A DNA stretch of 64,000 nucleotides from an uncultured Alphaproteobacteria bacterium (GCA_949082785.1 CARVLU010000002.1:4993-68992); one strand, 5' to 3'; shown: positions 59,775 through 64,000, counted from the stretch's first letter. Notes: generated by a model from the sequence alone, not told the origin. Numbers and translations are program-made.

Positions 59775-60272
59775 CTAGTTCGTGTAATAACAATCGGACG
59801 TAAATGTATAACTGCCGCTGGAATCGGACCCGGTCGCGCCAGCTGCCAAATAGCATGATGTTACCGACGTTGCCCCAGACCGCGCTGTGGTTCCGCCCCC
59901 CGGACACGCCGTGCATGACGACCCATTTTTATAAAATCCGCGATTACAACTGAACGACGACGTGCTGGTGCATGTACTGTTTGTGGGACAGACCCCATCA
60001 CATGTGCATGACGAACTGCCCTGGTTTATCGGGTAATACCCACTGTCACAATCACACGAATAACTGTATGGGATGGTCGAACATGGGCATGCGTTAATAC
60101 AGTTTGGACTGGAATAAGCATATTCGATTGTGGTGTGCCGTCCATGCGTGATATTTATGGTTATTCTGCGGTCTCTGGCACAGTCAGTGCCCCCAATCCC
60201 CAGCCCGAATGCGCCATCTGCGGACAGTATGCTGACAAGTGCCGTCGAAACGGCACAGATTAATGGTCTCAT
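59775..60272 (-). CDS. Secreted cysteine-rich protein, C-x2-C-P-x-G family (member C5)
   Basis: Start MRPLICAVSTALVSILSA (RBS aggagg) at complement 60270-60272; ..FSCNRGFYKNGSSCTACPGGGTTARSGATSVTSCY...TSDCYYTN. Confidence 0.6.
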   Translation of the reverse strand: MRPLICAVSTALVSILSADGAFGLGIGGTDCARDRRITINITHGRHTTIEYAYSSPNCINACPCSTIPYSYSCDCDSGYYPINQGSSSCTCDGVCPTNSTCTSTSSFSCNRGFYKNGSSCTACPGGGTTARSGATSVTSCYLAAGATGSDSSGSYTFTSDCYYTN

Positions 60273-60295
60273 AGTTTTGCCTCCTGTGTTTTTAA

Positions 60296-60420
60296 CTATA
60301 AAAACACCGCCGTGTTTAAGGGCGGTTGGAGGTTCGAAACTATAAATTGGTATAGTGTGTTTATTTTGCGCGTACGCATTATTCACAACCCTCCAACCGG
60401 ATAAATCCGTTGGAGATATT
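60296..60420 (-). promoter_or_regulatory. Hairpin element D (inverted orientation) forming the 5' leader of C5
   Basis: Minus strand reads atctccaac..ggttggaggg-ttgtgaataatgcgtacgcgcaaaataaacacactat..atagtttcgaa-cctccaacc-gccc-ttaaacacggcggtgttttt-..aggagg..ATG, same layout as element A. Confidence 0.4.
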
Positions 60421-60589
60421 TTCATTCTGCTTCCAGAATGCCAACTTCCAGGTTTCGACACCTCAAACAGGGAACGCCCCTGTTCATGGAATATTAAAGC
60501 AGCAAATGCCGCCAAACGCAAGTCTTCAATTTTACCCAGGGATTGATTCATCCACCACCCGGCATGGTCCCGGGCGTGGCATATTTATA

Positions 60590-62626
60590 TTAACGAATCG
60601 AATGATATGTGTTTCCGCCATAACTGACGTTAATGGACGATGTTGCCTTGCCACTGCCCAGATTGCCATAACAGGCCTGGCCACCGACATTGACATGCAA
60701 CGCGGGGGTTGTCTGCTTGGCCGCGTATAATGGGACCGTCACACTGCCCGTGCGGATTTTGGTCACACCCGCCGCGCACATCGCCGCACATACATACGAC
60801 GACGTCAAATTAAACCCACTGTTGCATACCGTGTTCGCCGCATTGTACGCACAATCAGACGGATATGTAACCGCACCGGCATTTGCCGGGATGTATCCGT
60901 TTGACACACCGCTGTTGCCGCATGTTTTCTTGCACTGGGATTGCGCCGACAATCCCTTTCCACCGGCGGTGTATGGCGACGGACATCCGTAAATCGTAAC
61001 CACCCCCGCTGAATTGGGACTGCCGACACTGCCGGACCCATAAATATTTGTTCCACCCGGACAATAATATCCGGCATGACATGCCTCGCACGTGGTTTTG
61101 CCGTTTGCACTGGACCAATGCCACATGAACTGTCCCGCCGGACACGTTATGGTGATGGGGGTGACAGTGGAATTGCTGGCCTTCACATAACCATGGGGAA
61201 TGCCGATACACGATGATGCGCCGGCATTGGGCTGATATTCCGCGGCACCACTGCACGCGGTGCAACTGGCCGCGGCGGCCGGGGCGTACGTCCCCGCCCC
61301 GCATTTATCACACGAACTGGTACTGCCGTATGCGACATTGTGCGCACCCCGGGCCGTGCCGGCGGAACACGATGCGGTGGTCGTCGTGTTCTTGGTCGTT
61401 AAATATTTACCCCCGGCAACGGCAATCTGGCAGCCTTCTATTTTAGACTGGCCGGTTGTTTTATTATCCGTGTACCCGTTGGGGCAATTCTTGCAAGACG
61501 TGGCCGCCGACGCATCCTGGTACGTGCCGGCACCGCACGCGGTACAGCTGGTGGCATATGTGTATGACCCGTCGGCAACATCACTGCCGATATTCCCAAC
61601 CGCGGTGGTATATGTTCCCGCACTGCACGGGGTGCATGTGTTTGAAAAATCCGACGCCATCGGAATCGAATTGTCGATAAAATATCCCGCATTGCATTCT
61701 GTAAAACGTTTTGGGTATTCACAGTTATTGTAAATATTCGTTGATGCGGAATAGTAACATTTTCCATCACTGCGCCAAAAACCGTGATATTGGTATTCAA
61801 ATGTCCATGTGTCGGCAAGGCTGTTGTCCAGATAACACTGGGTCGCCGCCGTTGCGCCCGTGGGTGCGCGCAGAATGTTCGGCCCGTTATAGGTATGAAC
61901 TTTGTCATTGTTTGGCGGCGGACATGAATATTTGACGCCGCCGGTACAATAAGACGGACTGGTACACTGGGACTGGCCGGTGCGGGTGTTGGCATCCCCC
62001 CCGGTGGAATAATATCCGGCGGTGACGCTTTTGCGGGTGTTGTCGCCGGGGCAATAATATCCATTTCCGCCACACGCCAAACACTGTCCATTGGACAGAT
62101 AATACCCGGCATTACAGCTGTAATTATAACCGGAACCGCTGTTCGTCCATGCGCCATATGAACATGACCCATAACTGTAACTGCCATACGTGTAACCGCC
62201 ACAGTTCCCACTGCCCGTACAAGCGGATGCACCATTTGTGCCGCCCGCCCCGCCCGTGCGGTAACATGTCCGCGATTTCGCACGGGACCAACTGCGCGAT
62301 CCACTGCGCGTTTGATTTTGCTTGTACGAACCGTTGCTGATGTTGACTGTCACAGTCTGACTGGTCGCCGTGCACCCACTGCTGTCCGTGCCCGTATCTG
62401 TGCCGCTGTCGGTGAACGATACGGTCGAACACGCAACGCACGCGTTGCCCGCAGATGTTCCGTTTAAATAAAAGCCCGAATTACATGATGTGTATTTTTT
62501 ATATGTTGGGCAAGTATATCCCGCCGCATAAACCGATGCGGGCACGCAGATGACACACATTGCCGATATCAAACCGACGGTTTTCCTGGCGTATGATAAA
62601 TTCGATAAAATCCCAGAAATCCGCAC
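60590..62626 (-). CDS. Large secreted cysteine-rich protein with many C-x2-C-P-x-G/GYY modules (member C6)
   Basis: 678 aa, about 90 Cys; true start uncertain (track start is GTG). Confidence 0.65.
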   Translation of the reverse strand: MRISGILSNLSYARKTVGLISAMCVICVPASVYAAGYTCPTYKKYTSCNSGFYLNGTSAGNACVACSTVSFTDSGTDTGTDSSGCTATSQTVTVNISNGSYKQNQTRSGSRSWSRAKSRTCYRTGGAGGTNGASACTGSGNCGGYTYGSYSYGSCSYGAWTNSGSGYNYSCNAGYYLSNGQCLACGGNGYYCPGDNTRKSVTAGYYSTGGDANTRTGQSQCTSPSYCTGGVKYSCPPPNNDKVHTYNGPNILRAPTGATAATQCYLDNSLADTWTFEYQYHGFWRSDGKCYYSASTNIYNNCEYPKRFTECNAGYFIDNSIPMASDFSNTCTPCSAGTYTTAVGNIGSDVADGSYTYATSCTACGAGTYQDASAATSCKNCPNGYTDNKTTGQSKIEGCQIAVAGGKYLTTKNTTTTASCSAGTARGAHNVAYGSTSSCDKCGAGTYAPAAAASCTACSGAAEYQPNAGASSCIGIPHGYVKASNSTVTPITITCPAGQFMWHWSSANGKTTCEACHAGYYCPGGTNIYGSGSVGSPNSAGVVTIYGCPSPYTAGGKGLSAQSQCKKTCGNSGVSNGYIPANAGAVTYPSDCAYNAANTVCNSGFNLTSSYVCAAMCAAGVTKIRTGSVTVPLYAAKQTTPALHVNVGGQACYGNLGSGKATSSINVSYGGNTYHSIR

Positions 62627-62690
62627 CGCTTTTTATCCCCCGCTTTGCATAAATTTTCGTCGGCATATTATTACGTGATTAACTGCTTGT

Positions 62691-62720
62691 TATTATACGG
62701 GTTTGCCCCGTTTTTTACAA
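62691..62720 (-). promoter_or_regulatory. Putative sigma70 promoter for C6 (TTGTAA-17-TATAAT on minus strand)
   Basis: rc: TTGTAAaaaacggggcaaacccgTATAATa. Confidence 0.4.
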
Positions 62721-62723
62721 TAC

Positions 62724-62756
62724 GTTTTTACCGAAAAAATCCCGGCATTTGCCGGG
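62724..62756. terminator. Bidirectional intrinsic terminator
   Basis: aaaaaatcccggcatttgccgggatttttct. Confidence 0.6.
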
Positions 62757-62782
62757 ATTTTTCTCTTACTCAGGTTTCGTAT

Positions 62783-64000
62783 TTAATGGATACCGACGCG
62801 GAATTCATCTTTCCAGCCCGCCACAACCTGGCCGCCGATCGTGCAACTGATGTCTTCAAAGCCGCCCTTGACCTGGTTCTTTTTAATGACGTTACTGGTA
62901 ATCAGACCGCCCGCCGTTCCCAACACAACGCCCGCAACCGAATCTGACACCAAACGTGATGTGTTGAAATTACCTTCTTCGTTTTTCCACTTGCTGACCT
63001 TGAACGCGTCCGCCATGGTTTGGATGTTCGATGTCGCATTGCGTATCCGGCGGATACGGATGTTAATCTCTGCCTGTTGCTGTTGCGCGGTGGTGGCCGC
63101 CGCCGCCGCGGCATCAATCTGGGCAATTAATGCCAACAGTTCGTTATAGTAACTGTTGAACACAATTTCTGTCCGGCTGGAATCCTGGCAATATGCCAGA
63201 ATAATGTCAATTAACCCAACCACATCCGCATTGGCGCGATATTGAACCCGCCACTTGGCCAATTCCGCCAATTTCGTCGCATCACAATTAAATGTGACGG
63301 CCGGCGGGACTTCAACGGTCGGTGGAACCGTCGTCGCAGACTGGCATGCGCCGGTCGCAACATCAAATTTCTTGGACGTGTCAACGCATTTGCATGCCGC
63401 ACCATCCCATTTGGCCACAGATGCCGGAACCGCACAGCACACCGCGCATTCCGCTTTCTGCGCACCTGTCAGATTCTTGCACCGACGGGTGATACAGCTG
63501 GATGTCGTCCCTTCGCCGTTGCCACCCGTTGCCTTGGCAATACATTTTTTCTGGGCGGCGTTCCACGTATGCTTGTCCCCACAGTTACAGGCATTCCCAT
63601 TCCAGTTGGCGGGTTCGCCGCGGGCCGCCGCCGCTTCGCAATCCAACTGTGCCTGGGGCTTGCCCGCATTGGGGGTTGACGGATTGGCCGGGGGGGTGGT
63701 CCCTTCGGGGACGCACTTGCCATTTAATTCCACATATCCCTTGTCACAAATCCAGGCGATACATGGGTCCGCGCCCGTTACAACCTGGGAAGAATTGTCG
63801 TTAAACATCGGTTCGCCGGTGTCGGGATTAATAATTTTTTCACGTGCATGCAAATCCCCCTTAACCGTGCGCCATCTTTCCGAACATTGGGGAATTGGGG
63901 ATGCAATCCACTGGTCGTCCCATCCCAATTGACAGCGGAATTTGTAATTACGATATTGTTTCCCGTCCAAGCGTGCGTTTGTGGCAACGACCAAGTCCCC
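62783..64000 (-). CDS. Cysteine-rich secreted-type protein (member C7), probably continuing past window end
   Basis: More than 400 aa with 30+ Cys and Ala/Gln-rich linker; no stop between apparent start and window edge. Confidence 0.5.
   Translation of the reverse strand, partial: GDLVVATNARLDGKQYRNYKFRCQLGWDDQWIASPIPQCSERWRTVKGDLHAREKIINPDTGEPMFNDNSSQVVTGADPCIAWICDKGYVELNGKCVPEGTTPPANPSTPNAGKPQAQLDCEAAAARGEPANWNGNACNCGDKHTWNAAQKKCIAKATGGNGEGTTSSCITRRCKNLTGAQKAECAVCCAVPASVAKWDGAACKCVDTSKKFDVATGACQSATTVPPTVEVPPAVTFNCDATKLAELAKWRVQYRANADVVGLIDIILAYCQDSSRTEIVFNSYYNELLALIAQIDAAAAAATTAQQQQAEINIRIRRIRNATSNIQTMADAFKVSKWKNEEGNFNTSRLVSDSVAGVVLGTAGGLITSNVIKKNQVKGGFEDISCTIGGQVVAGWKDEFRVGIH

Follow-up and report, generated by a model that had tools for sequence, protein, structure and literature searches.

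Cysteine-rich protein genes in the window

We analyzed a stretch of 64,000 nucleotides (nt) from an uncultured Alphaproteobacteria bacterium (GCA_949082785.1, CARVLU010000002.1:4993-68992; "the window" below means this whole stretch), which encodes seven cysteine-rich (Cys-rich), putatively secreted proteins, and we examined both these proteins and the short DNA segments, bounded by inverted repeats, found at the 5′ ends of several of their genes. We refer to the seven open reading frames (ORFs) as A to G, to a paralog lying just outside the window as J, and to loci in public assemblies by L-numbers. All seven ORFs were confirmed at the positions listed below, and each begins with a hydrophobic, signal-peptide-like N-terminus. 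Their Cys content ranges from 3.9 to 10.7%, compared with 0.82% for pooled housekeeping proteins of the same window (n = 7; ParE, DnaJ, TolB, EF-G, DnaN, LepA, and AsmA), in agreement with an earlier note on this DNA, which had described seven ORFs that each combine a signal peptide with many Cys. These Cys-rich genes take up ~10% of the 64-kb stretch. The genes, with protein lengths in amino acids (aa) and with CTD standing for C-terminal domain, are as follows:

A, 21293-21907, minus strand (ORF 21293-21799): 168-aa Cys-rich protein of the A/C/E group, with arm-like repeats
B, 30282-31217, minus strand (ORF 30282-31082): 266-aa Cys-rich secreted protein with related inverted-repeat arms 5′ of it
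C, 41223-41842, minus strand (ORF 41223-41759): 178-aa Cys-rich protein of the A/C/E group, with a candidate switch
D, 54293-54748, plus strand (ORF 54362-54748): candidate switch and short ORF of signal peptide and CTD (CTD about 54500-54742)
E, 59775-60272, minus strand: 165 aa, 9.7% Cys, Ephrin_rec_like module and A/C/E C-terminal module; ordinary Shine-Dalgarno (SD) site and ATG, no inversion switch
F, 60590-62626, minus strand: 678 aa; signal peptide, mature N-terminus AGYTCPTYKKYTSC, Ephrin_rec_like/TNFR-like Cys-rich repeats, and CTD; switch in the predicted ON orientation
F, best PF07699 stretch, 61445-61561, minus strand: residues 356-394
F, CTD, 60593-60838, minus strand: ~80 aa, predicted all-beta
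G, 62783->64000, minus strand: partial in the window (62783-64000), 490 aa in full; separate Cys-rich secreted family

For E, an AGGAGG located 7 nt upstream of the start at 60272 indicates that the 165-aa reading is the right one.

The earlier note had treated these ORFs as seven paralogs built from CxxC-P-x-G and GYY modules, but BLASTP comparisons and motif counts divide them. A, C, and E have a common C-terminal module (C and E, 57% identity over 92 aa; A and E, 38% over 73 aa), so that the module described as near-identical in three proteins is indeed common to three, but near-identical only in C and E. D and F, and likewise J, have in common the signal peptide and an extreme C-terminal domain of ~80 aa, with 57% identity between D and F. 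Modules of the proposed kind are present in A, C, E, and F but not in D, which has no CxxC/GYY module, or in G, which is without CxxC-P-x-G and GYY modules and is a member of a different family with at least 552 members; B contains one CxxGYY, and its similarity to the others is at chance level. Judged by these comparisons, the seven ORFs form several groups rather than one paralog family, and the cluster of four members proposed for the end of the window is made up of E and F, G from the other family, and D.

Inverted-repeat-bounded segments at the 5′ ends of A, B, C, D, and F

When the DNA was compared with itself, the leader of D and the 5′ end of F matched along one genomic strand, even though the two genes are on opposite strands, and alignment showed ~78 nt at the start of F to be the reverse complement of the matching part of the D and J leaders. 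In A, B, C, D, and F, arms of 19-25 nt surround 63-79 nt at the 5′ end of the gene, with the left arm of F being degenerate. We call an orientation ON where the translation or transcription signals in the segment would serve the gene, and OFF where they would not:

F switch, 62561-62666, minus strand: right arm 62561-62579, 78-nt segment 62580-62657 in the predicted ON orientation, left arm 62658-62666
F SD site GGGGGA and GTG start, 62624-62643, minus strand: inside the switch segment
D switch, plus strand: arms 54293-54311 and 54391-54409, 79-nt segment, predicted OFF
C switch, minus strand: arms 41824-41842 and 41727-41745, 78-nt segment, predicted OFF
B arms, minus strand: 31195-31217 and 31101-31123, 71-nt segment in the 5′ untranslated region (UTR), upstream of B's own SD site and ATG
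A arms, minus strand: 21883-21907 and 21794-21819, 63-nt segment between them

In C, D, F, and J, the segment is 78-79 nt long and bounded by imperfect inverted repeats, TGCCKAATCCAATGGGACG ... CGTCGGTTTRATRTCGGCA, with the recurring arm motif TGCCKAATCCAAWGGGACG, and the right arm lies within the signal-peptide coding sequence. From its sequence, the segment is predicted to carry an SD site, a start codon, and the first ~15 codons. In the orientation present in F, GGGGGA is followed after 8 nt by a GTG start and by MRISGILSNLSYARK, which continues in frame into the hydrophobic core of the signal peptide; in the opposite orientation the SD and start signals are on the wrong strand, and in L007, L008, and L011 the frame is then broken by stop codons and has no start. 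The usual order, seen in D, J, and C and in the orthologs L003, L005, and L007, is a sigma-70-like promoter (TTGTTx-17-TATAAT), a 27-nt motif (GCCGAATMCAATGGGACGATTTTCCTG), ~70 nt, and CCCCCGTTTTGCATAAAATAACCGTCGGTTTGATATCGGCAATG, where the conserved 27-nt motif and the sequence coding for (I/T)VGLISAM are imperfect inverted repeats, and the segment between them is delimited by GACG...CGTC. The left arm of F is short of ~11 nt, and a position matrix built from the arms detects the right arm alone; with its left arm damaged, F is probably locked ON.

The arms of A and B are related to these but may surround different cargo. The segment of A contains TTGACA-18-TAAAAT at 21834-21863 on the plus strand, an 11/12 match to a sigma-70 promoter that is directed away from A, which suggests a promoter-type switch that is currently OFF. 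The segment of B contains terminator-like hairpins in its present orientation, and the two loci may represent switches with an outward-facing promoter (A) and a 5′-UTR segment (B). Arm-like sequences scoring at least 20 on the position matrix occur in the window solely 5′ of A, B, C, D, and F, and the maximum from 20 shuffles was 16.6. Neither the repeat finder nor the position matrix located switch arms at E or G.

Two other repeats near these genes were considered and set aside. An intergenic element is present in three or four copies at 45.3-46.3 kb (45324-46235), beside small helix-turn-helix-like ORFs, and a further copy with a terminator-like hairpin is located at 60270-60399, just upstream of E; Rfam gave no match to this element, a tRNA being the one match found. 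The copy upstream of E includes a perfect 10-bp inverted repeat (CGGTTGGAGG/CCTCCAACCG) around 57 nt, which we rejected as a switch, as it is in one orientation in 6 assemblies and its arms are unrelated to those above. A 27-nt exact repeat 5′ of D and F was likewise rejected as a shared regulator, since it is the intrinsic terminator hairpin of the upstream genes:

Terminator hairpin aaatcccggcaaatgccgggatttttt, 54196-54222 and 62734-62760: identical 27 nt, followed in each case by a near-consensus promoter

Orientation states in public assemblies

J is present in both orientations in independent public assemblies, with L051 being ON and L043, L061, and L092 being OFF. The flanks of L051 and of the OFF loci are colinear for >5 kb, including the upstream secretin gene and the downstream rpsT, and an 86-nt stretch spanning the 78-nt segment is a 100% reverse match between the two orientations. 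A second comparison, between L006 (ON) and L008 (OFF), involves syntenic orthologs in the metagenome-assembled genomes (MAGs) of two species, with 83-88% identity over 12 kb; here ~100 nt are inverted, with 86% reverse identity, and the inner base by which each arm can be recognized has changed places along with the segment.

The OFF copies have retained what the ON orientation would need. Each keeps an intact antisense SD site, ATG, and ORF, i.e., MRISGILLNLSYTRK in J, MRISAAFGNFYCARK in L003 and L005, and MRHKPGIFSD... in L008; an antisense ORF reading MRISG.. is likewise intact at OFF loci. Flipping the segments of C and D in silico restores an SD site, a start, and an in-frame signal peptide, giving MGIFNLNFMDRTIVGLCTAILVVGPSNA followed by ALNCC and (GTG)RISGILLNLFCIRKIVGLMSAM..., respectively. 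The ON-type N-terminus M.Q..GIF...IA.K is kept in many distant relatives, and in L015, which is ON, the inverted repeat is perfect over 17 bp. Counted per assembly, C is OFF in 5, D is OFF in 3, and J is OFF in 3 and ON in 1, and F is ON in the window, L047, L048, L095, and L096-L099. These observations indicate that the inverted segments of C, D, F, and J are likely a real DNA-inversion switch.

Several apparent alternative states did not withstand examination. A form of F starting at Met23 (656 aa), which might have been an OFF allele, corresponds to L047 and L048, which are ON and differ in the gene call. L046 and L049 (GCA_949118225.1, ERZ778509) join the J OFF leader to the F coding sequence, which would imply a deletion of dnaA; given the 5′ repeat shared by the two genes, we regard them as chimeric assemblies rather than F OFF alleles. 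The contigs of these chimeras begin or break exactly at the inversion breakpoint, which is at most suggestive of mixed orientations in one population, and they call for caution in MAG-based annotation of this family. A search of metagenomes with 18-mers gave matches of which 34/45 are chance matches in unrelated organisms, and an exact-protein look-up of C gave no match, probably as OFF copies of C are called differently or not at all.

A homopolymer tract within F

F also contains a poly-G tract:

Poly-G tract of F, 61996-62002, minus strand: codons 206-208; G7 here, in frame

The tract is G7 in the window, L001, and L046-L049, and G8 in L095-L099, where the frameshift truncates F near residue 250. 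The 90% cluster of F includes a 581-aa gene call beginning in another frame, and the DNA of this call was found on 14 contigs from several samples, at up to 71x coverage and 98% identical to the window. Removing one G from the G8 allele gives a 678-aa protein that matches the intact database protein P0394 at every residue and P0393 at all but one; the same allele therefore occurs both in frame and out of frame. This G7/G8 difference has the signature of slipped-strand phase variation, with repeated homopolymer miscalls a possible alternative source. Eight G/C runs of 7 or more were counted in the window, which is close to chance expectation, and the tract by itself is therefore unremarkable. 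Other runs are a G8 at 32337-32344 in a glycosyltransferase/methyltransferase gene (31374-32948), a C8 at 44114-44121 just 5′ of the ORF at 44129-45025, and a 7-mer at 63690-63696 in G, and these are possible further contingency loci.

Protein class, fold, and a C-terminal domain family

A Pfam search of the seven window proteins found Ephrin_rec_like (PF07699; gathering threshold 23.1 bits, whole-protein hidden Markov model score) in E (26.1 bits) and in F (27.5 bits, 3 stretches), both above threshold, and in C slightly under it (21.3 bits), with no match for A, B, D, or G. The resemblance to ephrin-receptor-like and TNFR repeats noticed earlier was thus borne out, whereas two of the models put forward for it, TNFR_c6 (PF00020) and Furin-like, gave no match at E <= 1 in these seven proteins, and neither did Giardia VSP (PF03302). 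Among 28 homologs of F, PF07699 was found in 10/28 and PF23091 TNFR_ELAPOR1 (TNFR_ELAPOR1_6th) in 9/28.

Structure prediction, which the earlier note had suggested as a check, also gave a disulfide-rich beta-hairpin repeat type for F. The AlphaFold2 model, built on these relatives, has a mean predicted local distance difference test (pLDDT) score of 75, reaching at least 90 over residues ~170-460, and Foldseek against the PDB matched it to the Chlamydomonas mastigoneme protein Mst1 (E 3e-7, probability 1.0), to ELAPOR1 (E 5e-4, probability 0.85), and more weakly to DcR3/TNFR and Eph ectodomains. Global TM-scores of these matches are at most 0.25, which means that the match concerns the type of repeat and not the assembly, and it is at this level that the model supports an ephrin-receptor-like/TNFR fold. 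PF07699 has been held to be essentially eukaryotic, with the few bacterial cases put down to transfer (PMC6993872).

Predicted domain layouts differ between the large and the small members. The large ones (F, J, and the minimal D) appear to consist of a signal peptide, a conserved mature N-terminus, a variable array of modules, and the ~80-residue, predicted all-beta CTD, and the small ones (A, C, and E) of a signal peptide and two or three Ephrin_rec_like/TNFR-like modules. The mature N-terminus AGY-x-CP-x-YKKYTSC-x-SGYYLNG is strongly kept in otherwise divergent proteins, so that the layout reads as constant ends with a variable middle; for example, J contains two tandem ~115-aa repeats in L043 (10001-12112) and one in L051 (3668-5600). 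No transmembrane segment or lipobox was found in these proteins.

The CTD occurs in two homologous, alignable flavours. A profile of it found 1093 clusters, 571 of them at E <= 1e-10, and the domain lies within 20 residues of the C-terminus in 204/205 proteins, as a single copy in each. It matched no Pfam or NCBIfam model, no PDB fold, and no described sorting or anchor family (the type IX secretion system CTD, autotransporter, or PEP-CTERM). By these profile comparisons, we consider it a previously undescribed domain family of more than 1000 clusters.

Source organism and secretin genes next to J

The genes lie between a ribosomal-protein operon and genes for EF-G/EF-Tu, lepA, tolB, dnaN, asmA, uvrC, parE, and dnaJ on a 483-kb metagenomic contig, and these interspersed bacterial housekeeping genes exclude contamination. 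Homologs are found in sequences labelled "MAG: Alphaproteobacteria bacterium" and in Candidatus Enterousia, from human, mouse, chicken, deer, and other guts. Enterousia belongs to the GTDB order Rs-D84, whose genomes are under about 1 Mb and for which dependence on a partner is suspected (PMC12306168), and none of the contigs bearing these genes exceeds 1 Mb. The source is an uncultured gut alphaproteobacterium related to this reduced-genome order, which, like Enterousia, is widespread in guts. We found no evidence for the intracellular symbiont that had been proposed; the relatives are gut MAGs for which partner dependence is suspected. The exact F protein was present in 165 sample blocks compared with 310 for ParE, and in 130 compared with 148 when counted on contigs of at least 50 kb.

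In 7 loci from different species, a tcpQ-domain gene and a secretin lipoprotein gene are located directly upstream of the J ortholog:

tcpQ-domain and secretin gene pair, L043 7195-9787, and also in L005, L006, L007, L008, L011, and L037: adjoins the J-type gene

By TIGR02520 (E 8e-71, under the equivalog cutoff), the secretin falls nearest to the PilN family of type IVb pili, and it is 86-98% identical across the 7 loci, compared with 33-67% for the J orthologs. No pilin, ATPase, or platform genes were found near the pair. This arrangement suggests that the secretin may be tied to the export or display of these proteins.

Other secreted proteins in the window

Three adjacent genes on the minus strand, at 33354-33857, 33965-35023, and 35044-36804, encode secreted proteins, two of them carrying extended collagen-like (Gly-X-Y) repeats and one an Ala/Thr-rich coiled-coil protein, and DNA repeats run through 35216-36000 in this cluster. 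No switch arms were detected at this trio, which by its sequence is another set of eukaryote-like or fibrous putative surface proteins.

The family of G has a variable Cys-rich N-terminal half, a coiled coil, and a near-invariant, hydrophobic, glycine-zipper-like C-terminus. One G homolog carries the UniRef label "TraN", which we rejected as 0/40 G-family members match TraN in Pfam and a profile search against PDB sequences gave nothing relevant. G (62783-64000) and its neighbor H (L001 6845-9861) are head-to-head, their 3′ halves form a 767-bp inverted repeat with 88.5% identity, and the two proteins hardly differ over their final ~200 residues, which suggests gene conversion or recombination between G and H.

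Interpretation

We consider the best explanation, with a probability of about 70%, to be a phase-variable repertoire of Sec-exported, disulfide-rich proteins in a gut alphaproteobacterium related to Rs-D84. Individual genes would be toggled by site-specific inversion of DNA: in one orientation an SD site, an ATG or GTG, and an intact signal peptide would be assembled, and the gene would be ON, and in the other orientation these signals would be on the wrong strand, and the gene would be OFF. In this genome, F would be ON and C, D, and J would be OFF, and F, with its damaged left arm, would be switchable instead via the G7/G8 tract. The proteins would be displayed by the cell or released by it, for use in encounters with a host or partner. 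Sequence analysis and comparison between loci show the protein class and the switches; that the proteins are secreted or on the surface, that they help the cell to attach to a host or partner, that their export involves the secretin, and that a dedicated invertase exists are inferences. The earlier note had suggested a surface-variation repertoire; the inversion switches and the poly-G tract gave this strong and unexpected support and, since they supply a concrete mechanism of variation, the finding is stronger than first stated.

A number of observations weigh against this explanation. No gene for a serine or tyrosine recombinase was found in the window or in ~90 kb of annotated sequence flanking it; in the integrase-like ORF at 24383-25396 (minus strand), which does contain arm-binding and central domains, no catalytic domain was detected and the catalytic Arg and Tyr are missing, and it was rejected as the invertase and is probably a decayed phage or island integrase. 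C, D, and F were each in a single orientation in all the assemblies examined, which means that switching, if active, is strongly biased or rare; both orientations of one locus were seen only for J, and once, and in the ON copy of J (L051) a short deletion shifts the frame after about residue 272. The switches of A and B are proposed from sequence resemblance, and, as the training set of the position matrix comprised the arms of B, C, D, and J, A is its sole independent match, with the arms of B having been located first by the repeat finder. F is not hypervariable within the species, and variation would come about by ON/OFF switching and module number rather than by hypermutation. Finally, the PF07699 match is weak (E about 1e-6), and the sequence profile of F against the PDB gave no match.

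Alternatively, and with rather low probability, the proteins could be soluble secreted factors or pilus-associated cargo that leave the cell through a PilN/TcpQ type IVb-like channel, with the mature N-terminus as the secretion signal. In TcpF and CofJ, the N-terminus serves as a secretion signal, and a similar role here would agree with the synteny of the tcpQ/PilN secretin pair with the J ortholog in 7 loci, with the high conservation of AGYxCPxYKKYTSC in divergent proteins, and with the lack of a transmembrane segment or lipobox. However, only one family member per genome adjoins the secretin, the pair is without the nearby pilin, ATPase, and platform genes noted above, and the terminal CTD looks more like an anchoring or sorting module.

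It is also conceivable, but unlikely, that the proteins form a structural fibre or coat, i.e., a mastigoneme-like or S-layer-like lattice, rather than acting as ligand-binding adhesins. The best structural matches are proteins of the Chlamydomonas mastigoneme filament, the same window encodes the collagen-like and coiled-coil secreted proteins, and F, constitutively in the ON orientation, is conserved among members of the species. With TM-scores of <= 0.25, those matches nevertheless extend to the repeat type only, and phase-variable alternatives with strong divergence between species are more typical of adhesins and antigens.

The inverted 5′ segments could instead be fossil rearrangements that arose by recombination at short inverted repeats and became fixed in each gene and lineage separately, with no active switching today and with the OFF genes silent and pseudogene-like or started at TTG. 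Such relics would be in keeping with the missing invertase, the single orientation of C, D, and F, and the degenerate left arm of F, and D and J in the OFF state still offer a TTG start (MHKITVGL...), which is annotated by PGAP in P0003. We nevertheless find this improbable, as assemblies of one species that agree in their flanks carry exact reverse complements of each other at J, the OFF copies keep their antisense SD site, ATG, and ORF across species at 83-88% DNA identity, the arms are conserved across species in non-coding DNA, and the OFF copies in L007, L008, and L011 lack a start and are interrupted by in-frame stops. Eukaryotic contamination, or a very recent transfer from a eukaryotic host that would mimic TNFR or Eph receptors, is highly improbable: PF07699/TNFR-like repeats are mostly eukaryotic (PMC6993872) and the fold matches are all eukaryotic, but the neighbors on the 483-kb contig are bacterial housekeeping genes, the promoters, SD sites, and Sec signal peptides are bacterial, the CTD is present in >1000 bacterial clusters, and, in view of the Pfam E of about 1e-6 and the lack of a sequence-level PDB match, any transfer would be ancient.

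Returning to the phase-variable repertoire, we would only tentatively, and with a fairly low probability, extend it to an undescribed, dedicated surface-display system of Rs-D84-type gut alphaproteobacteria, in which eukaryote-like disulfide-ladder proteins with a conserved N-terminal export signal and a CTD for sorting or anchoring would use a PilN/TcpQ-type secretin and be expressed in varying combinations, under a global invertase whose site lies partly in the signal-peptide coding sequence and with homopolymer slippage as backup, for attachment to, and evasion of, the host or partner cell that would sustain the reduced metabolism of the organism. The repertoire names concrete candidate proteins for the interface with a host or partner, and their placement under at least two candidate kinds of heritable ON/OFF control is characteristic of molecules that face an immune system, phage, or a partner. 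It also points to a compact, 78-nt "translation-start" inversion cassette that recurs throughout a gene family and to a large CTD family so far without annotation, and its sequence motifs make the phase state directly measurable in existing metagenomes.

Comparison with known systems

Our limited literature search found nothing on these proteins or switches in Rs-D84, although they may have been described elsewhere. Among the closest known systems is that of Mycoplasma penetrans, where the P35/Mpl lipoproteins have individually invertible promoters (Horino et al. 2003, as summarized in PMC2268961). As with mpl, we are dealing with a reduced-genome, host-associated bacterium in which scattered surface-protein loci each have their own short invertible element and would switch ON and OFF independently. 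Unlike mpl, C, D, F, and J have a promoter that stays in place, and their element would hold the SD site, the start codon, and the N-region of the signal peptide; the products are Cys-rich repeat proteins rather than lipoproteins; and candidate recombinases are known for mpl, but none here. Multi-locus promoter inversions in Bacteroides fragilis are under global invertases (Mpi; Coyne et al. 2003, cited in PMC2268961). That system also involves a gut bacterium with dispersed surface loci and one inverted-repeat consensus, and such a consensus at many loci implies a recombinase acting in trans. It belongs, however, to another phylum, with another repeat consensus, and its inversions are promoter inversions for polysaccharide or SusC/D-type operons. 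Partial intergenic and intragenic invertons have also been reported (PMC10028968; Milman et al. 2023, cited there). As in partial intergenic invertons, one repeat is within the gene and the other is intergenic, so that the 5′ end of the ORF is recoded or lost on inversion; those described in that source are mostly long, shufflon-like domain swaps, in contrast to the 78-nt translation-start ON/OFF cassette proposed here.

At the protein level, the predicted CxxC-containing disulfide-ladder modules resemble the repeats of ELAPOR1, Eph, TNFR, and Mst1, but these proteins are bacterial, Sec-exported, and joined to a novel CTD, and the sequence similarity is marginal. The variant-specific surface proteins (VSPs) of Giardia are extracellular and CXXC-rich, their ends are conserved and their middle varies, and only part of the repertoire is expressed. 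The proteins described here form a CXXC-rich repertoire of a similar layout, but they have no Pfam VSP match and no C-terminal transmembrane helix with a CRGKA tail, and their variation would rest on DNA inversion and homopolymer slippage rather than on post-transcriptional or epigenetic control. The tract in F is comparable to the homopolymer contingency loci in surface genes of Neisseria, Haemophilus, and Campylobacter, in that a run of 7 or 8 in an intragenic poly-G decides the frame; unlike those loci, F also has an inversion switch, probably disabled, and only two lengths were seen, in comparisons between assemblies. The arrangement described here departs from these known systems in the cargo of the cassette (the translation start and signal-peptide N-region, with one arm in coding sequence), in its use in gene after gene of the family and in several species, in its eukaryote-like protein modules, and in the new CTD.

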